Assembly (NCBI GenBank): GCA_030587475.2
Contig: JAUQYZ020000022.1
Coordinates: forward strand, 1 to 48,741
Length of the DNA: 48,741 nt
Direction: 5' to 3'
DNA from: Candidatus Sigynarchaeum calidifontis
GTDB taxonomy: Archaea > Asgardarchaeota > Lokiarchaeia > Sigyniarchaeales > Sigyniarchaeaceae
Shown: positions 6,461 to 18,611 of the stretch, piece after piece
Numbering within the stretch: the stretch's first letter is position 1
How the letters are laid out: each line of letters opens with the position of its first letter
Position numbers and translations under genes: made by a program
Notes under the pieces: generated by a model
The model's database searches: none
What the model saw: the letters and a program-made list of their open reading frames with translations, nothing else
What the model was told of the DNA's origin: nothing

Positions 6461-7858
6461 GTGGCTCATGGACACGATCGAATCGTGAACGGACATTTAC
6501 GGGATAAGAAAAAGTCGGCGATCGACGCTCTGACGGATAGGGTTTTCCCGCCGATAGCCCTTGCCAGCGTCGCCACGTTCGGCTGGGCCATCCGGGGGCA
6601 AGCCGGTTTCGGTGCCATCCCCGGCTGCGTGTTCGCGGGGACGTTGATCGCGTGCACGTGGTATTTCTGGTCGACGCGGGCGACGCGCGATGGTTCGCCG
6701 AGACCATTCAGCAGCGGGTGGACGTTACTTGCCTTGATCGCCGGGATCGGGATCGAGGGCATGCACGGTTGGAGCCAATACGGCACGTGGATCCAGGGCA
6801 AGTTTTGGGTCGGTCAGGACGTTTTTTGGCCCATGAATCCTGCTTTCGGCTACGCGTGGCTGTTCGTGGCAGCGGTGCCGTGGGGAGCGACCGGGGCAGT
6901 GTTTTTGGCATGGACCCGCCGCGGCGACCATCTCACGAGACGATCGTGGATAATCCGCCTGGCCTCGGGCGTAGTAGGCATGCTGGGGGCGACATCGTTG
7001 TTCTTCGCTTGCCGGCCCGTGATCCTTCCTTACTGGGGGACGGCTCCCTACGACGATTTCGAGACGTGGGAAGGCTGCATGGACACCTACCACCAGATCT
7101 TGCAAGCGATGGGGTTCATGGGCCTGTTCCTTGGCTTCCTGGCCTTCGAGGTCTGGCGGAAGCATTGGCAAAACGTCAAGCTCATTGGAATCGTCGCCTT
7201 GATCACGGGTTTCGGCTGGCTCGTCGCGAAGACGTGGATGTTCGCCGACGAGGCATTTCCGACCGTGAGCTGGAATTGGTGGCGATGCTGGGAGGCATCG
7301 GGCGGGTTCGCGATTGGCCTGGGCCATGCGATCGCATTCATCACGTGCAACAAGCCCCGAAGCGACCACGCATCCCAACCACGAGAAATGCTAGTTCCCG
7401 GGTACCATCGCTGGCAAGACCTGCTCGAACGCTATGTCGGCCTCCATGCTGCCCTCATCATCGGCCTCACGTACGCCGTCTCGAGCCTCATCAAGGGCAT
7501 GTTCGCGATCTACGACGACGAGGATCTCGCCGTGCCGTACCGCGTGATAGCGGGCATCATGCTCGTCGGTGGCCTGGCAATGCCCGTGATCGCGAGCTTG
7601 GCCAGGCAGCTGCGCGAGGGGACGACGGCCGATCTTGCATCCGACGGCGTGACCTTCGGCCGCATCTATCCAATTGTCTTGTCCGCGTTGTTCATCGTCG
7701 GTTTGCTCGTGACTGGTCCCATAACGAACCCGAGCGAGCGGGCGTTCATTTGTTTTTACGTCGTGCTCTGGGCGATAAACGCGGTGATGATCCTCGCTTC
7801 GATGATGTTATCATCGCTGTCATTGTCCTCGCAAAGCCAGCCGGGCATCATGCCTTGA
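6461..7858 (+). CDS. Polytopic membrane protein of unknown function
   Basis: About 12 hydrophobic segments; Gly/Trp-rich motifs GWAIRGQAGFG, GWSQYG, NWWRCWE. Confidence 0.8.
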   Translation: MAHGHDRIVNGHLRDKKKSAIDALTDRVFPPIALASVATFGWAIRGQAGFGAIPGCVFAGTLIACTWYFWSTRATRDGSPRPFSSGWTLLALIAGIGIEGMHGWSQYGTWIQGKFWVGQDVFWPMNPAFGYAWLFVAAVPWGATGAVFLAWTRRGDHLTRRSWIIRLASGVVGMLGATSLFFACRPVILPYWGTAPYDDFETWEGCMDTYHQILQAMGFMGLFLGFLAFEVWRKHWQNVKLIGIVALITGFGWLVAKTWMFADEAFPTVSWNWWRCWEASGGFAIGLGHAIAFITCNKPRSDHASQPREMLVPGYHRWQDLLERYVGLHAALIIGLTYAVSSLIKGMFAIYDDEDLAVPYRVIAGIMLVGGLAMPVIASLARQLREGTTADLASDGVTFGRIYPIVLSALFIVGLLVTGPITNPSERAFICFYVVLWAINAVMILASMMLSSLSLSSQSQPGIMP

Positions 7859-8588
7859 AATCGTCCTTCCGCCAAGCTTCGAAGGCTTGCCGCATCAATT
7901 CCTTTTCGGCTTCCTTTTTTTGCTTGAAAACGACCGCCGTCTCGATGTGGGGGAAATGAAGGATCGTGCAGTTGTCGGCCGGGTGAATGACCCGCATGTT
8001 CCTCGCGCCGAAACGTTTATCGTGGTCGGGACCAGATTCAACGAAATCAATCTTGATGACCGGGGTGATGCCGAATATTTTCTGGACAGCTTCGATGAAT
8101 TGGTTTTTTTGCTGGTCAGGCGAGGTGTCGATGAACGACGATGCCTTTGCGAGGATCGGCCCCACCAGCTTCTCGTGCACGAGCGCGAGATCCTTTCCGG
8201 AGTCCAGGTACATGGCGCCGCAGAGCGCCTCGAGCACGTCCGACAGCACGCCCGTGTCGGTCGCGGTGATCGGGGCGAGCGAGATCACGTGGCCATCGAT
8301 GCCAAGCTCCACCGCCCTGGCCGCCATGACCCTGTTGCTCTCCAGGATGTTTCTTTGCTTGGTCATGGTCTCTTGATCCTTTGCGGCGGGGTCGTCGTAC
8401 AGCGCCTGGGCCATGACGAGCTTGGCAACCGCGTCGCCGAGGAACTCGAGCCGCTCGTAGGACGCCACGCCGTGCTGCTTGGCATACGCGGGGGTAGTCA
8501 GGGCCTCCACGAACAGCGCCCGGTTCTTGAACGTGTATCCCAGCCGTTCTTGGAGCGCGTCGAGACCCGGTGCTATCGCCATGTTCAT
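7848..8588 (-). CDS. rnc: Ribonuclease III (catalytic domain + dsRBD)
   Basis: Signature ERLEFLGDAV and SDVLEALCGAMYLDSG; C-terminal dsRBD-like segment (SGPDHDKRF...KKEAEK). Confidence 0.93.
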   Translation of the reverse strand: MNMAIAPGLDALQERLGYTFKNRALFVEALTTPAYAKQHGVASYERLEFLGDAVAKLVMAQALYDDPAAKDQETMTKQRNILESNRVMAARAVELGIDGHVISLAPITATDTGVLSDVLEALCGAMYLDSGKDLALVHEKLVGPILAKASSFIDTSPDQQKNQFIEAVQKIFGITPVIKIDFVESGPDHDKRFGARNMRVIHPADNCTILHFPHIETAVVFKQKKEAEKELMRQAFEAWRKDDFKA

Positions 8589-9463: not shown

Positions 9464-10186
9464 ATGCTTAACAAGATCACGTCCCTCGACCAGTTTTATT
9501 CCCTCCGGACTCTTTTACTTTGCATATACATCATCATACTATTAGCCGGGTTCGTTTATTTTGTGATAGCGGCTCGAAAGGCCGATAATACCGTGACAAA
9601 GCGGATCAAAATCGGATATGGCTTGTTCGGCCTAACTTATGCGTTAACGCGTTTTTTTTTCTTACTTTCGGACTACGAGATGGCGATATCGTACCCAATT
9701 TATCACCATGCTACACAGCTGCATTTAATCTGGGTAACAACTGCATATTCCGTTACCTTCGTGAGTTTGCTCGTCATATATCACACGGTCGAGCGACTCA
9801 TCTTGAACCGAAAACCCGTGCTCACGACCATCACGGCAATCGTTTTCATTGTGTGCTCGGTTGCGTTGGTTCTCGTAGCTTTTAATGTGGGCCTGGACTT
9901 GGTTCAAGATACCGGGCCGCACCAGATCGCCAAGTGGGCATTATATATCACAGGACCAATACTTGCAGTTGGAATCGCTGCACTCTACATCGTCATCGTG
10001 CGGAATTCAGCTGGTTCCGTGCGGATGAAGTCAGCGCTATCCTTGATCGGCCTTCTGATGATCTTCGCTGGCCTAATCTTTGATATGGATGCCTTGTCTT
10101 CTTTAGGAATTGATTCGTTTCGATTTATACTATCCCCATTACTTTTCATTGCCGGAACTGTGATCTTTTTCGCGGCACAGCGATGA
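9464..10186 (+). CDS. Stand-alone 7TM membrane protein (Lokiarchaeal-type)
   Basis: Seven hydrophobic helices countable by eye; shares motifs with the N-terminal half of 11574..13025. Confidence 0.8.
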   Translation: MLNKITSLDQFYSLRTLLLCIYIIILLAGFVYFVIAARKADNTVTKRIKIGYGLFGLTYALTRFFFLLSDYEMAISYPIYHHATQLHLIWVTTAYSVTFVSLLVIYHTVERLILNRKPVLTTITAIVFIVCSVALVLVAFNVGLDLVQDTGPHQIAKWALYITGPILAVGIAALYIVIVRNSAGSVRMKSALSLIGLLMIFAGLIFDMDALSSLGIDSFRFILSPLLFIAGTVIFFAAQR

Positions 10187-10278
10187 ACCAGCTATGATTT
10201 TCCTTTCTTTTATGCCATTACCCGAAGCAAAAAGCCTTACCCCCTCTTGAAAAGTATCTTCGTTAATATGAAGTACTC

Positions 10279-10301
10279 ACCAACTTATCTTGAAAGTTGG
10301 T
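10279..10301. promoter_or_regulatory. Perfect 8-bp inverted repeat, candidate operator
   Basis: ACCAACTT-N7-AAGTTGGT just upstream of the ATG at 10334. Confidence 0.4.
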
Positions 10302-10333
10302 CGACTAATCACTCTATATAATTGGTGATCGAA

Positions 10334-11065
10334 ATGAACACGCATATAAAATGCACATTCTTCCTTAGCATTTTTTTGCTCAGCGTGGTGGCGCTCACGG
10401 GCACGAGCATGGCCCTCGAACCGTCCTAGGTCCACTGGAACACGACCCCATCCCTTCCCGGCGAGGGTATCCTCGATGATTTCATGGGCAAGGTCGACGG
10501 CGTGCTCGACAACGTCGTGAAAGCCAACATCACGGGCACGAACATCTATTACTACAACAACACGTTCGGCCCGTCGATCCGGACCCGGGACACGTTCGTG
10601 TCCCCGATGACCAATTCTACAACATTCTCGCTTTCGGGAACCAACTTGTCAACGTCGTTGCTGCTGGTTTCCTACCTGAACCGCTTGAACGGGAACCTTT
10701 CCGCGCTTATCCCGAACATCGCAGCAGCGAGCGGGTTGATCGTGAGTTCCTTCACACCATGGAAGAATATAATCGCAAAGGAGTGGTTCGGCATCAACGC
10801 GACCTATGGCGGCATGGCGATCAATCAGGGAAACCTCATGCGTGTCCAATATCGAGTCAAGCAGTGCATCCGCGACGCCCGATGTATTGCAGCACTTGCT
10901 GGCGATATGCAGCGAGCTGGTCTCGAAGAACAAGGTCATCAAGCTCGATCGGCTCTACAACATCGCCCGCCGCGAGATGCATGTCGATGCAGCGGCGATC
11001 CTCAACGGCATCAAGCGGCTCGAGGACGACTTGATCATCAAAGCGGATTCCAAGCTGCTTCGTAG
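10334..11065 (+). pseudogene. Interrupted secreted/surface protein gene (signal peptide, in-frame TAG, then Asn/Thr/Ser-rich extracellular-type sequence)
   Basis: GGTGAT SD-like motif then ATG 10334 (MNTHIKCTFFLSIFLLSVVALTGTSMALEPS); TAG at 10427-10429; same frame continues into ORF 10484..11065, which loses protein-like character after about 10850. Confidence 0.6.
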
Positions 11066-11558
11066 TGGCTTGCTGCAAAACGACACGCGGCGGGAACTTT
11101 ATGCCATCATCACGCGGAATCCCGGCATCTCCTTCAACCAGATACGCCGCCAGATGGGCAAGGGGACGAAGCTCTTGATCTGGCACGTCGAGGTCCTCAC
11201 CGATTTCGGTTGCATACGAGCATACACGTTCGGGACGAGCACGAAGGCATATTTCTCGCGGCATATCGACGAGGCGGAATGGGGACGGGATGGCCTTTAC
11301 ATGTTCCAGCTCTACCAGAACCCGACCGTGAAGACGATCCTCGACATGTTATCGGAAGGGAAATCATTCTCGGTCAAGCAGATCGAGCACAGGCTCGGCG
11401 TCTCCCGCCAGCTCGTCGAGTATCACTTGAAAAAGCTTCAGGACCAGCACGTGATCGATGCCATCGACGAGGAACCGCGGCTCTACTTCCTCGTCGAAAT
11501 GCAGCGCCGCGTGTTTCTCAAGTGCAAGGAATATTTCGCAGCGCGTGCGATGGCTTGA
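10806..11558 (+). CDS. Multi-winged-helix transcriptional regulator (COG3398/ArsR-like, archaeal)
   Basis: LLQNDTRRELYAIITRNPGISFNQIRRQMG...LIWHVEVLTDFGCI and SVKQIEHRLGVSRQLVEYHLKKLQD; true start uncertain. Confidence 0.8.
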   Translation: MAAWRSIRETSCVSNIESSSASATPDVLQHLLAICSELVSKNKVIKLDRLYNIARREMHVDAAAILNGIKRLEDDLIIKADSKLLRSGLLQNDTRRELYAIITRNPGISFNQIRRQMGKGTKLLIWHVEVLTDFGCIRAYTFGTSTKAYFSRHIDEAEWGRDGLYMFQLYQNPTVKTILDMLSEGKSFSVKQIEHRLGVSRQLVEYHLKKLQDQHVIDAIDEEPRLYFLVEMQRRVFLKCKEYFAARAMA

Positions 11559-11573
11559 TGGAATTATTCCCCA

Positions 11574-13025
11574 TCATTTCTTTTTACTAGCCGCTGGCTT
11601 TTTCACGGGCTTGGCCGGCTTGGCCGGCTTGGCGGGTTTTTCTTGCTGCACAAGCGCATCCGAACGTGTTTGCGGTTTTTCCTCTTCAACGCGGCTAACC
11701 GCTTGCGGTGTGATCCCTTGTGGTGTCGTGTCTGGAACTGGCGGTTTCGCGGGATTCGGTGCCGGCCACGGGTCATTCTCTGGTTCCACGGGCTCCGACT
11801 TGGCCTTCGGTATTGGCGGTTCTGCACGTGCCGTTTTTTGCTCTTTGACACCTGCCTCGCTTGTCCTCGTCTCTTGCCCCTCGGTATTTTTAGCGTGTTT
11901 GAAAATGCCCTTTGGGAATAAGCCTTTCACGAACCTGGCGACCTGGTGGGCGATGCTTCGCGGGTTGACGCGCCACCAGTTCTTGTCGATGGCCGTCTTG
12001 AAGATGTCTGCCGTGATCGCTTGCATGGGCCCCGCGAACCGGGCGACTTCCCCGCGCCATTTCTCGAGGGGTTGCCGGAGTTCGGTCTCTGCACGGTTGA
12101 TGTAAGCCAGCAGTTTCTCGTGCAATATATCAAGGTCCTTGCGGGTGATAAGCGCGACGGTGATGTATTTCCCGTATTCAAGAAGGATCTTCTTGTCCTC
12201 GTGGTCGAGCACCTTGAGTTTCTTTTCCGAATTGATCATTTCCTTGATGATGCCGATCACGCCGGTCACGCCCGAGCTGAATAGATCTGCCGACACGCCT
12301 TGCATCTCCCTTCCCGTCTTGAGGAGGGTCTCGTCGTGGATGCACGCGCTCGTGTCGATGTGAAAGGCGAAAATGTGGAGCAAGTAGTCCATCCAATGAA
12401 CTTCCTCGAGCATGGGTATGCGAACGCATGCAAGGGCGATGAAAGCCAATCCGATAATGACAACGGCCACCGAGATAGGTCTTGGAACTAATTGCTTGGC
12501 AAGCTCCGCGCTGAGCGCGTAGCCTAGCCCGTAGAAAACAAAGCCGATGAACAGCGTGAAAAACCTCTTCCGAACCGATCCGGTGACCATGGCCATGAGC
12601 CGAAAGAGGAACGCTATGACGAACAATATCAACGCCGATGCAAAGATGTAATAGAGATGGCGGAGAACATCGATGGTGAGGAACAACACAATGCATGATA
12701 CGGCGAGAAAGGCAATCGTGAACACGTAATGCGTTTTCCGGAGCAAGTATTCAGCGGCATACATGAACACGGCCATGGCCAGGAACGCGAAAAATGCCGC
12801 GGAAATGTAATACGTCGCATTCTTCGGGGATTCGAAATCCCAGAATATTAACAAGACCCGGGTGATCCCAAAACACAAGTAGGCGAGACCGAGGATTGAA
12901 ATGTGCCGGGTCTTTTGAGGCTTCCATTTCAAGATAAAAAACACGAACAGCTCGAAATCGATGAACGCCTCGATGCAATACATTGCATAAAGAAAAGGAT
13001 CATTAACCGTGAAAGCCATGATCAT
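11574..13025 (-). CDS. 7TM membrane protein fused to a longin-like domain and a Pro/Lys-rich tail
   Basis: Seven TM helices, then LHIFAFHIDTSACIH...DLFSSGVTGVIGIIKEM...LKVLDHEDKKILLEYGKYITVALIT...LHEKLLAYINRAE (longin-like beta/alpha pattern), then a low-complexity KPAKPAKPAKPVKK tail. Start at ATG 13025 or 13019. Confidence 0.75.
   Translation of the reverse strand: MIMAFTVNDPFLYAMYCIEAFIDFELFVFFILKWKPQKTRHISILGLAYLCFGITRVLLIFWDFESPKNATYYISAAFFAFLAMAVFMYAAEYLLRKTHYVFTIAFLAVSCIVLFLTIDVLRHLYYIFASALILFVIAFLFRLMAMVTGSVRKRFFTLFIGFVFYGLGYALSAELAKQLVPRPISVAVVIIGLAFIALACVRIPMLEEVHWMDYLLHIFAFHIDTSACIHDETLLKTGREMQGVSADLFSSGVTGVIGIIKEMINSEKKLKVLDHEDKKILLEYGKYITVALITRKDLDILHEKLLAYINRAETELRQPLEKWRGEVARFAGPMQAITADIFKTAIDKNWWRVNPRSIAHQVARFVKGLFPKGIFKHAKNTEGQETRTSEAGVKEQKTARAEPPIPKAKSEPVEPENDPWPAPNPAKPPVPDTTPQGITPQAVSRVEEEKPQTRSDALVQQEKPAKPAKPAKPVKKPAASKKK
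11608..11634. repeat. 9-bp tandem repeat x3 (GGCTTGGCC/G) encoding (KPA)n
   Basis: ggcttggcc ggcttggcc ggcttggcg seen directly. Confidence 0.8.
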
Positions 13026-16064: not shown

Positions 16065-18611
16065 TCATTGATTGGATTTCTTTATGAACAGCGGGCTAAT
16101 GTTGTCCGATGCGGTCTCCTCGTTCAAATCGAGCTTCTCGTAGATCTCGTTGTAGACCTGGTTGATCTTGGAGGCGAACTCAGTGTCCTTGGATCCTTCC
16201 AGCTTGAACAAGTCATTGAATTCCGCCACGACCTGGATCTTCTCGATGCTGACCAGCTTGCCGATGTTCGTGTCGATGATCTGCTGCATGAGGTTGATGT
16301 CCTTGCCCATGTCGAGGCGCATCTCGTTCACGATGCGGGATAGTTCGGCGAGGTCTTGCGCCCTGGCAGGATCCTTGATCAGCGTGCCATCCGGCAGCGT
16401 GTATATGTCAGACCTGGCGTTGGCCGCATCCTTGATGATGACGGGAACGAGTTTCTCCGCGTAATCCATGAGCTTCGCGCGCATGGCGTCGTGCTCGTAG
16501 ATCAAGTCGGGCGTGGCGATCTTGATCAAGCCTAGCATCTTCGACTTTAGGTCGGCGTGCGCTGCGATGTTTCCCGCAATGGCCACGAGCAGCTGGCGCT
16601 TGATGATGTTCAAGTTTTTCATGCGACCCTTGAGCTTGTCGATCATGTAGAGAATGCCTTCCAAGGGCGAATAGAGGTAATTGCACGTGATCTCGAATTC
16701 CTTCGCGAGACTTTCGATCAGCCGATCATCGATGCGGGATTCGCCCTTTTCCATCAGCTTCAAGAACCGGTCGATGGACATGTCGACCACTTGCACGGAT
16801 CCTTGCAGCGTCTTGTGGATGCGTTCCGCCAGGTCGACGAGGGCGTTTTCCACGATGTAAAAGTAGATCATGTTGCGCAGCTCGGCGCCCTTGACCAGGC
16901 CCTCGCCCAGCGCGGCGAGGATATAGTACCGGTCAAAGATCTCCCTCGGGCCGAGAAACTCGTTCACGAGTTCCACGTGGCTATACCGGTCCTGGCTGTT
17001 GAACAAGAAGAGCAAGCCGCGAAAGATGTACGTGTAATACCGCAATTCGTCCTGGCGGAAAGGCTGTCGCGGCGCGGTGCCGATGCCGTTGTTGATGCGC
17101 TCCATGTTGATGAAATTTCCCACTTGAACGCAAGACTGCCAGAGCACCTCGTTCTTGTAGCTGAGGCCCTTGTCCACGGTGGAGCGAATGAAGGAGGGGA
17201 ACGAAACGAACACGTTTTTGAACTTGAACAGCTCCAGCAAATAGTTCTTGAGCGTGTCGACCGGGAAATCGGGAAAATGATGACCCAGCTCTTCGGCGAG
17301 CAAGTCGAACGAGAACGGCAAGTTCATGGAGAATTTCAGCACGTCGTCCAGCTTGTCCCTGCTTGTTGCGAATATACGGCACGTTTCCTCGAGGATGGCG
17401 TTCTCGAAAACGTTATCCCCGAAGTTTTCCATCAGCCGGAAAAATTCCTCGAGCCCAGGTGGCGGCTCGCCCACGTTTTTCTTGACGATCGCGTGCAAAT
17501 AGGTTTCCTTGTTATACAATGCGAGCTCGGCCAGGTGACAGAAGCGCGTTCTCGCCTCCTTTAATAATTCCGGGTCTTGCAGTTCCCTCTTGATGCGTTC
17601 CTTGTGAGCAGGATCGGCTGGAGGGAAGAAGAGCGTCGCGCCCGTGGGGCTGCCGAGGATGTACTGGAGCGGGACCTTTTTCTTTTTCTCCTTGAACTTG
17701 TCGCCGAGATACGTCATGTCGTGGGGATCGAGCAAGAAAACTGAGGGCTCCGGATCCATCGTTGCATCGACGATGAGATAGATCATGGCGTTGAAGACCA
17801 CGGGGATGCCAGCCCTGCTTCCCGTGCTGGTAAAATAGTTCTTGACCTTGTTGTAGAAAACTTCGGCGAACTGGCGACGATCCTCTTCGTATGCCTTCTT
17901 GTCATATTCATAAGAGAAGAGCTGGGACACCGTAGTCATCTGGCCGCCGACCTTCACGGGTCTCGAGCGACAATCGTCCACCGCGATTTTTGACCTGAGC
18001 TTGTCGAACTCGGGCCCCTTGAGGATGTATCCCTTTCCCTCGTAATCGCGGGCGTATATCTGGGCCCCCGTGTATTCCTTGTCACCGACCTTGTATATCT
18101 TGTATTTTGACTCCTCGATCACGCAAGCCAAGTGGGTTTGGCGGGCGTCCTTGCACTCTTGCGATGCCTCGATGTATTTTCCTCCCTCGTTGGCGAATAG
18201 CTGCTCGACGTTCATGGTGCGGGTGCCGCCGATGCACACGGACATGAGCGCGGGATAGTACATTACATCGTTGAATACGTCGGAAAACGGCTTGATGTCG
18301 AACACGTACGCGGCCATGTCCTCGAGCTGCGTGAACTCGCCGAACCTAAGCATTGACTCCGGCGTGAGGTTGGCAATTTCACCCTCCCTTTCCTTGAAGG
18401 CCCTGGCTTTCTTGCGCAAGTACAGCTGGAGCGTGTAGAGCGGGACCTCCACGTCGCAGTACTGGCGGAGAAACATCTGCAGCACGTTGTACCCGCACTG
18501 CCAACGTTCCTTGGAGTGCCCGGCCATCACGTCGTAGATTTTTTTATATCCTTCCCAGCGCAGCAAGTCTGGATCTTGCACCGGGGCTGGTTTTGCAGAC
18601 GGGCTGCTCAT
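16065..18611 (-). CDS. Large (848 aa) mainly alpha-helical hypothetical protein
   Basis: Long ORF with host-like codon usage; T7 run on the minus strand downstream (16043-16049); no recognised motif. Confidence 0.85.
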   Translation of the reverse strand: MSSPSAKPAPVQDPDLLRWEGYKKIYDVMAGHSKERWQCGYNVLQMFLRQYCDVEVPLYTLQLYLRKKARAFKEREGEIANLTPESMLRFGEFTQLEDMAAYVFDIKPFSDVFNDVMYYPALMSVCIGGTRTMNVEQLFANEGGKYIEASQECKDARQTHLACVIEESKYKIYKVGDKEYTGAQIYARDYEGKGYILKGPEFDKLRSKIAVDDCRSRPVKVGGQMTTVSQLFSYEYDKKAYEEDRRQFAEVFYNKVKNYFTSTGSRAGIPVVFNAMIYLIVDATMDPEPSVFLLDPHDMTYLGDKFKEKKKKVPLQYILGSPTGATLFFPPADPAHKERIKRELQDPELLKEARTRFCHLAELALYNKETYLHAIVKKNVGEPPPGLEEFFRLMENFGDNVFENAILEETCRIFATSRDKLDDVLKFSMNLPFSFDLLAEELGHHFPDFPVDTLKNYLLELFKFKNVFVSFPSFIRSTVDKGLSYKNEVLWQSCVQVGNFINMERINNGIGTAPRQPFRQDELRYYTYIFRGLLFLFNSQDRYSHVELVNEFLGPREIFDRYYILAALGEGLVKGAELRNMIYFYIVENALVDLAERIHKTLQGSVQVVDMSIDRFLKLMEKGESRIDDRLIESLAKEFEITCNYLYSPLEGILYMIDKLKGRMKNLNIIKRQLLVAIAGNIAAHADLKSKMLGLIKIATPDLIYEHDAMRAKLMDYAEKLVPVIIKDAANARSDIYTLPDGTLIKDPARAQDLAELSRIVNEMRLDMGKDINLMQQIIDTNIGKLVSIEKIQVVAEFNDLFKLEGSKDTEFASKINQVYNEIYEKLDLNEETASDNISPLFIKKSNQ

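Follow-up and report, generated by a model that had tools for sequence, protein, structure and literature searches.

A seven-helix membrane protein with a cytoplasmic longin-fold domain in Candidatus Sigynarchaeum calidifontis belongs to a nearly Asgard-wide family

The window analyzed here is contig C257 (48,741 nucleotides; 48.7 kb) of a metagenome-assembled genome (MAG; 4.99 Mb, 89% complete) of the Asgard archaeon Candidatus Sigynarchaeum calidifontis. Positions 9464-13025 of this window hold four features: an open reading frame (ORF) for a stand-alone seven-transmembrane (7TM) protein, referred to here as ORF A, a broken gene remnant, a winged helix-turn-helix (wHTH) gene, and ORF B, the product of which joins a 7TM domain to a longin-fold domain. 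We assign B, as a clade-specific member, to an unannotated family of 7TM-longin proteins that is very large and nearly Asgard-wide and has the N-terminus outside and the C-terminus inside the cell (N-out/C-in). Judging from fold and gene neighborhood, proteins of this family would most likely be longin platforms for small GTPases, embedded in the membrane. For B itself we put the probability of such a role at only about 45%, because B forms a separate, unpaired clade without a GTPase neighbor.

Seven membrane helices and a longin-fold domain

Seven hydrophobic segments were found by hydropathy in A and seven in B. AlphaFold2 (AF2) models built with family alignments likewise placed seven helices in each protein, at residues 14-39, 43-80, 85-113, 119-139, 152-181, 185-207 and 217-238 of A (predicted local distance difference test score, pLDDT, 88; predicted TM-score, pTM, 0.83) and at residues 10-32, 40-64, 70-95, 101-115, 118-146, 149-171 and 182-200 of B. 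An earlier note on this DNA, made from its letters alone, had counted seven transmembrane (TM) helices in both proteins, and both methods agree with it. Across the A and B families, Lys and Arg were concentrated in loops 1-2, 3-4 and 5-6; for the 7TM domain of B these residues amounted to 4.1/2.1 in inner loops vs 0-0.3 in outer loops. This distribution predicts an N-out/C-in topology for both families and thereby a cytoplasmic location of the longin domain of B.

A direct BLASTP comparison of A with B was not significant (E 0.12), and profile methods were required to establish homology. Alignment of the two family alignments with hhalign gave a probability of 96.3% (E 1.7e-9, 157 columns), in a register that pairs exactly the three motif pairs quoted in the earlier note. 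The score of 61.3 compares with 14.5±2.7 (maximum 21.3) in 60 column-shuffled controls and with 17.5 for the reversed profile. In addition, a hidden Markov model (HMM) of the 7TM domain, built from 84 distant 7TM-longin proteins, matched A directly (E 1.9e-19). The profile-profile match, the shuffled and reversed controls and the HMM match together indicate at the sequence level that the 7TM domains of A and B are homologous beyond composition, as had been claimed, and that A is a member of the 7TM superfamily of B. A is a stand-alone member without an output domain, and its orthologues in Sigyn- and Lokiarchaeia MAGs share 50-85% identity. One relative in the A family (P0028, 349 aa) carries a C-terminal Cys-rich (CxxC...CxxC) extension resembling a zinc ribbon, so that the 7TM module combines with cytoplasmic tails of different kinds. 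Searches of A and B against Pfam and NCBIfam returned nothing meaningful, a weak NCBIfam PspA match of B being confined to its Pro-rich tail, and PDB sequence searches with B, A and the broad family gave no significant match.

The predicted secondary structure of residues 215-343 of B (AF2/DSSP, pLDDT 85-90) follows the order beta-beta-alpha-beta-beta-beta-alpha-alpha, with strands at 215-222, 228-233, 272-275, 278-284 and 288-294, helices at 253-265, 299-315(321) and 328-343, and without an N-terminal helix that packs against the sheet. Further helices and then a disordered Pro/Lys-rich tail (377-483) follow this core. In VIA-align, the best superpositions were on Sec22 (Z 12.8; 120 aa, 3.3 Å), Fuzzy (Z 12.6; 119 aa, 2.5 Å), VAMP7 (12.3), AP-3 sigma and Synbindin (11.6 each), the AP-2 mu N-terminal domain (11.5), Sedlin (11.4), SRX (10.5), the Lokiarchaeota longin 8yqg (10.4; 124 aa, 3.1 Å) and Mon1-Ccz1 (10.0). 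More than 20 further longin entries had Z of at least 9.2, and all top non-membrane matches were longin folds. The top Foldseek matches were AP sigma subunits, zeta- and delta-COP, MON1/CCZ1, Fuzzy/Inturned and the VAMP7 longin, with target-normalized TM-scores of 0.5-0.63. According to these models the C-terminal half of B has a longin fold; the strand and helix order and the superposition on solved longins both uphold the longin-like domain described earlier.

Sequence searches saw little of this fold. No longin-clan model of Pfam matched B above its cut-off. Among the 84 relatives, sub-threshold Pfam matches were to Sybindin (7/84, best E 1.3e-3), Fuz_longin_1 (two proteins), Sedlin_N (one) and Longin (one), and the family profile touched Trs23 and TRAPPC1 weakly in the PDB. 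As to a roadblock assignment, PF03259 did not match B, no roadblock entry was present in the VIA-align top 50, and Foldseek listed the C-terminal domains of Gtr1/Gtr2 at low rank. The 13 true Robl_LC7 genes of the source genome all lie at other loci.

Within the longin domain, the alpha1 helix and the beta3-beta4 hairpin are almost invariant (DLFSSGV..., LDHEDKKILLEYG), and this conservation suggests a protein interface. A linker of the form P-x-L/F-x-E-x-x-W joins TM7 to the longin domain, with E208 and W211 conserved in at least 90% of the 84 family members. The Pro/Lys/Ala tail of B (about 108 aa, with a basic C-terminus) was found only in the Sigynarchaeum-type clade and not in orthologues of 368-405 aa; the length of B-type tails differs among relatives (proteins of 463-626 aa).

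Size and range of the 7TM-longin family

A profile of B orthologues retrieved 1046 family members among representatives at 50% identity. Among the best 164 proteins, the longin domain was preceded by seven predicted TM segments in 78 and by six or seven in 103, while 13 proteins had 11-12 TM segments; one of the latter was checked and proved to be a major facilitator superfamily (MFS) transporter. Further variants are stand-alone proteins and giants of 1000-1660 aa, some with a wHTH domain after the longin domain. All named members are from Asgard archaea, and a broad profile detected the family in 186 of the 201 Asgard genomes searched, 57/59 genera and 87/88 high-quality genomes. The source genome alone has 34 ORFs with the 7TM domain of the B family and 47 with its longin domain. 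B's own orthogroup is narrow, comprising four genomes of one taxonomic family (f1) and, more distantly, a second family (f6). The ESM Atlas returned solely unnamed Asgard clusters for B.

Expansions of longin and roadblock domains in Asgard archaea, including fusions of these domains to GTPases and to two-component domains, have already been reported (PMC10933270, PMC4917890, bioRxiv 10.1101/2020.10.19.343400), and a 2026 preprint lists '7TM proteins' among reported Asgard families of eukaryotic signature proteins. The soluble Asgard longin/roadblock proteins (Lokiarchaeota Roadblock-Longin, 8yqg; PMC10933270) share fold and phylum with B. However, those reported are soluble or fused to GTPases, whereas the longin domain of B is the tail of a 7TM protein. 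The searchable literature gave no description of a 7TM-longin fusion or of the GTPase-linked pairs described below, Klinger et al. (2016) and the asCOG tables lying outside this search, so that earlier cataloguing is possible. The modules are thus known ones, in an architecture and context for which we found no description.

Small-GTPase genes beside paired family members

The source genome contains tandem pairs of family genes, overlapping or closely spaced, on contigs C174, C213, C45, C91, C18 and C102. In a maximum-likelihood tree of 66 members, the pair members were separated into an upstream clade (UP, 19/20 rows; support 96/85) and a downstream clade (DN, 19/20 rows; support 99/93), with mirrored subclades. 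This split with its mirrored subclades suggests that UP and DN are an old, co-inherited heteromeric pair, and predicts heterodimers comparable to TRAPPC1/C4 or Mon1/Ccz1.

The neighbors of tandem-pair genes were surveyed at 20 loci in other genomes. A Ras-family GTPase ORF was present within 1 kb at 10 of these, in five genera and at several loci with two or three GTPases; eight of the loci had gaps of 53-250 nt, and the other two had gaps of about 0.9-1.0 kb. With a background of 57-86 Ras-family genes per 3.7-4.7 Mb, about 0.05 would be expected per locus. The neighboring GTPases matched the Pfam Ras model with 126-163 bits, in addition to one Arf-like protein. When the Pfam families of 94 flanking ORFs were counted without bias, Ras ranked first with 15, and the next unrelated families reached at most 4.

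In the source genome, which encodes about 58-69 Ras-superfamily small GTPases, linkage was seen only for the tandem-pair subset. On C174 (14750-17682; L071), a Ras-family GTPase gene is separated by 16 nt from two overlapping 7TM-longin genes, one UP and one DN. A different arrangement occurs on C118 (2146-7295; L072), where a gene for a 1478-aa longin protein without a Pfam domain is followed 15 nt on by a Gtr1/RagA-like GTPase gene (36 bits; cut-off 22).

Several observations weigh against a GTPase platform, particularly in the case of B. In the tree, B belongs to a clade of its own (support 99/92) on the downstream side, distinct from the GTPase-linked UP and DN clades, and it has no tandem partner. 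No GTPase-like ORF was found on the 48.7-kb contig. When all 47 longin-family ORFs of the source genome were considered, five lay within 5 kb of a GTPase gene vs 4.2 expected (p 0.41), as by chance. The GTPase-neighbor loci belong to related genomes of a single taxonomic family (f2), and 0/4 loci of another (f12) had such a neighbor. The mean pLDDT of the B model is only 68, with 75-90 in its domains. Furthermore, folds of the longin type have functions that do not involve GTPases, such as SNARE regulation and adaptor cores. The GTPase-regulatory link proposed earlier has genomic evidence at the level of the family, from sister-clade pairs that adjoin Ras-family genes, but no GTPase ORF lies on the contig of B.

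If B does act as a GTPase platform, its 7TM bundle would keep the longin domain, probably dimeric, on the cytoplasmic side of the membrane and may gate this domain upon a ligand or membrane cue. The platform would then dock or regulate a Ras-superfamily small GTPase as a guanine nucleotide exchange factor (GEF), a GTPase-activating protein (GAP) or a tether. GTPase binding by B itself, sensing by the 7TM bundle and the direction of regulation are steps that we infer. Several of the proteins with comparable folds (Sec22, Fuzzy, VAMP7, AP sigma/mu, the TRAPP longins, SRX and Mon1-Ccz1) are longin platforms that contact small GTPases. With the eukaryotic longin GTPase platforms (TRAPPC1/C4, i.e., Bet5/Trs23; Mon1-Ccz1; Fuzzy-Inturned of CPLANE; SRX with SR-beta), B and its family share the fold (Z 9.5-12.6), a weak sequence signal toward Sybindin/TRAPPC1/C4 and the occurrence of paired sister clades beside Ras/Rab-like GTPase genes. 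However, the eukaryotic platforms are soluble or peripheral, whereas the longin domain of B is the C-terminal tail of a seven-helix protein; B is also a singleton without an adjacent GTPase, and the GTPase link of the family is suggested by genomic context.

Asgard genomes encode dozens of Ras/Rab/Arf-like GTPases and longin/roadblock domains, and the matching of switches to regulators and to membranes has been hard, as these are rarely found in operons (PMC10933270). The paired sister clades beside particular Ras-family genes name concrete trios, for example that on C174. If binding and regulation hold true, the archaea most closely related to eukaryotes would possess a small-GTPase module coupled to the membrane. 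A broader proposal would see the 7TM-longin protein as a receptor and GTPase regulator in one polypeptide that predates eukaryotes, in which a bundle gated by a ligand or by the membrane exerts allosteric control over a longin GEF or GAP for Ras/Rab-like GTPases, as a homo- or heterodimer, while the B clade has switched to a winged-helix transcription factor. We regard this as unlikely; if true, it would place receptor-coupled small-GTPase signaling at the membrane of the archaeal ancestors of eukaryotes.

Resemblances of the 7TM bundle

All top 50 VIA-align matches of A were seven-helix receptor-type bundles. The best were the adhesion G protein-coupled receptor (GPCR) ADGRL3 (Z 14.7; 200 aa, 3.9 Å), CD97 (14.3) and GPRC5D (13.7), and the top 50 also included de novo GPCR-like folds, ACER3 (13.3), GABA-B, TAS2R and microbial rhodopsins (about Z 12); AdipoR2 (11.6) was likewise among the fold matches. 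The 7TM domain of B matched Ste2, adhesion GPCRs and TAS2R at Z of about 10-10.8. Helical bundles reach such Z values through arrangement alone, and Foldseek E-values for A were merely 0.015-0.09. A search of all PDB sequences with the A-family profile gave 0 matches at E up to 10, and no Pfam GPCR family was matched by A, B or the 84 relatives. The modeled 7TM bundle is thus GPCR-like in arrangement, at the level of the fold, which is not evidence of homology. The analogy with GPCRs drawn in the earlier note is supported for the arrangement of the seven helices, but does not extend to a sequence relation with any PDB chain. Eukaryotic GPCRs (adhesion/class B2, class C, class D and TAS2R) have the up-down seven-helix bundle and the orientation in common with A and B but no sequence relation to them, and comparable scores were obtained with de novo GPCR-like folds, with ACER3 and with microbial rhodopsins.

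Other known 7TM proteins were compared by their diagnostic features. Microbial rhodopsins were rejected, since TM7 of neither A nor B contains a Lys and none is conserved there in either family, hence no retinal site. Hydrolases of the PAQR/alkaline ceramidase (ACER) type were rejected as well, neither family having an invariant His in the TM helices or a conserved intramembrane His/Asp zinc site; H41 of B, in an inner loop, is the sole invariant His ahead of the longin domain. The 7TMIC channels (insect Or/Gr-like) are N-in/C-out (bioRxiv 10.1101/2023.08.30.555482), opposite to the orientation predicted for A and B, and were rejected for this reason; the longin tail of B follows TM7, and no Or/Gr structure was among the top 50 of A. 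The 7TMR-DISM_7TM model (PF07695) gave weak matches in 5/84 relatives (best E 1.1e-3), all below the Pfam cut-off; its matches in the source genome were also below cut-off, and eight control genomes gave similar sub-threshold matches. As in 7TMR-DISM receptors, a seven-helix module is combined with interchangeable cytoplasmic parts (here alone, with a longin domain or with the zinc-ribbon-like tail), but A and B have neither an extracellular DISMED domain nor a kinase or cyclase output.

The same matches bear on an alternative that would make the 7TM domain a membrane enzyme, a channel or a transporter, and the longin-like domain a regulatory or dimerization module that binds metabolites in the manner of GAF/PAS domains and has no GTPase partner. 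Fusion of the same longin domain to MFS transporters of 11-12 TM segments would fit this alternative, as would the charged residues that are invariant inside the TM helices of the B family (E19, E25, R56 and D63) and the presence of ACER3 and AdipoR2 among the fold matches. However, the top fold matches are receptors, the zinc and retinal sites expected of the known enzymes and pigments are lacking, and the enrichment of GTPase neighbors would be left unexplained. We therefore consider a transporter or enzyme rather unlikely.

The winged-helix gene and conservation of the neighborhood

The protein encoded between A and B matched the Pfam models HTH_24 (38.9 bits; cut-off 21.9), HTH_HVO_0163_N (34.9; 31), HTH_20 (34.1; 27) and MarR_2 (27.1; 27). 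The first three of these models cover the second and third winged helices, and the first winged helix was seen by inspection alone. An NCBIfam ArsR/SmtB-like match (E 1.8e-9) was below its cut-off. From these matches the gene is predicted to encode a winged-helix regulator of a DNA-binding type (ArsR/AsnC/MarR). Its conserved sequence begins at about 10842, and the true start codon is uncertain.

Orthologues of the wHTH gene (45-74% identity) adjoin B in three other genomes. Counting the source genome, the convergent B-wHTH pair is found in four genomes of three genera (Table 1), with B identities of 39-61% and differing genes on the far side of B. At L030 (7312-8691, + strand), a gene for an NHL/six-bladed beta-propeller protein stands between the two. 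In the relatives, the wHTH gene lies directly downstream of a large surface-protein gene, with a 10-nt gap or an overlap, and is thus co-operonic with it. The surface protein combines a signal peptide and an extracellular region with a single TM helix and some 280 aa of cytoplasmic domain, for which the ESM Atlas returned nothing; its length is 1012 aa at L030 but 507 aa at L031, with 32% identity between the two.

The broken gene upstream of the wHTH gene in the window is what is left of this surface protein. Over 168 aa it shares 60% identity with the N-terminus of an intact orthologue from the same-genus genome G130, has a TAG (10427-10429) where G130 has Gln, and retains about 168 first codons, which are joined out of frame to the wHTH start; about 2.5 kb are missing relative to L030. 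The junction reflects either a genuine deletion or a join made during assembly.

ORF A was found beside the B-wHTH pair only in the genus Sigynarchaeum, and a contig break in G130 means that even this second neighborhood is inferred. A is not at the locus in G139 (L030), is 1.4 Mb away from B in G151 (L031), a genome of the same family, and showed no conservation of its other neighbors. With an A-B neighborhood limited to one genus, we reject A as the heteromeric partner of B, a role suggested for it in the earlier note.

The only conserved neighbors in the clade of B are the triple-wHTH protein and its upstream surface protein, and B may for this reason feed into, or act beside, that pair. 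A stronger form of this idea is that B works with the wHTH protein itself: the membrane-bound longin domain would bind or sequester the regulator, alone or with the surface protein, and thereby form a kinase-free route from membrane to transcription without a GTPase. The convergent pair has indeed been kept in three genera although the other flank of B differs, and in giant paralogues the longin domain is immediately followed by a wHTH domain (PF24409, 29-33 bits). On the other hand, the adjacency is limited to f1, the B-like genes of f6 having neither a wHTH nor a GTPase neighbor, and in L030 the NHL-repeat gene parts the two. The wHTH gene is operonic with the surface protein and not with B. 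Except for one weak case on C250, the wHTH paralogues of the source genome are not beside longin paralogues; the wHTH family of the middle gene was not found beside the 20 other family loci, where no HTH family was among the top 25 neighbor families, and the fused wHTH of the giants is not detectably of the same family as the middle gene (BLASTP E 0.7-1.2). The wHTH route appears doubtful on balance, and the transcriptional output proposed earlier is unproven, with an adjacency kept only in f1 and a regulator coupled more tightly to the surface protein than to B.

A role of the family in membrane remodeling or protein sorting, in which the 7TM domain would be a mere anchor and the longin domain would work as it does in SNAREs or in the cores of adaptors, is improbable despite best fold matches that include the Sec22/VAMP7 longins and AP/COPI sigma/zeta subunits, as B lacks a SNARE or coiled-coil segment after its longin domain and the strong conservation of 7TM motifs common to A and B argues for more than an anchor.

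Layout and surroundings of the locus

The features of the locus are listed in Table 1. A and the wHTH gene run in the same direction, and B is convergent with the wHTH gene across a 15-nt gap. The earlier note had overlooked the remnant between A and the wHTH gene. Gene callers start ORF B two codons later, at 13019, which gives a protein of 481 aa.

Table 1. Features at 9464-13025 of the window, and loci of the convergent B-wHTH pair in related genomes.
Feature	Position or locus	Strand	Description and basis
ORF A	9464..10186	+	Stand-alone seven-helix membrane protein, 240 aa, predicted N-out/C-in; ORF, AF2, hhalign, family HMM
Surface/single-pass TM protein gene remnant	10334..10837 (ORF tail to 11065)	+	Signal peptide, TAG, N-x-S/T-rich segment; then homology ends
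Triple winged-helix (ArsR/AsnC-like) protein	10806..11558	+	Predicted; Pfam wHTH models
ORF B, whole	11574..13025	-	483 aa, including 7TM domain, longin domain and disordered tail
ORF B, residues 1-204	12414..13025	-	Seven-helix membrane domain, N-terminus predicted outside; AF2, Lys+Arg distribution, VIA-align matches
ORF B, residues 205-375	11901..12413	-	P-x-L-x-E-x-x-W linker, predicted cytoplasmic longin-fold domain, trailing helices; AF2, VIA-align, Foldseek
ORF B, residues 376-483 plus stop	11574..11900	-	Disordered Pro/Lys/Ala-rich tail, basic terminal patch; pLDDT 35-45
B-wHTH pair	G130, L029/L033		Same genus
B-wHTH pair	G139, L030		Same family; NHL-repeat gene between
B-wHTH pair	G151/G351, L031		Same family

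An Rfam search of the window gave no match. The genes around the locus are of housekeeping or metabolic type (nitroreductase, RNase III-like, DUF3786-like, FAD oxidoreductase, NAD synthase, aldolase and glycosidases). Two ORFs were without a Pfam match, a multi-pass membrane protein of 465 aa (6461-7858, + strand) and a protein of 848 aa (16065-18611, - strand). The RNase III-like gene (7848-8588, - strand; Ribonuclease_3, 58 bits) is of the bacterial type in this archaeal genome, and it adjoins the nitroreductase gene in G130 as well.

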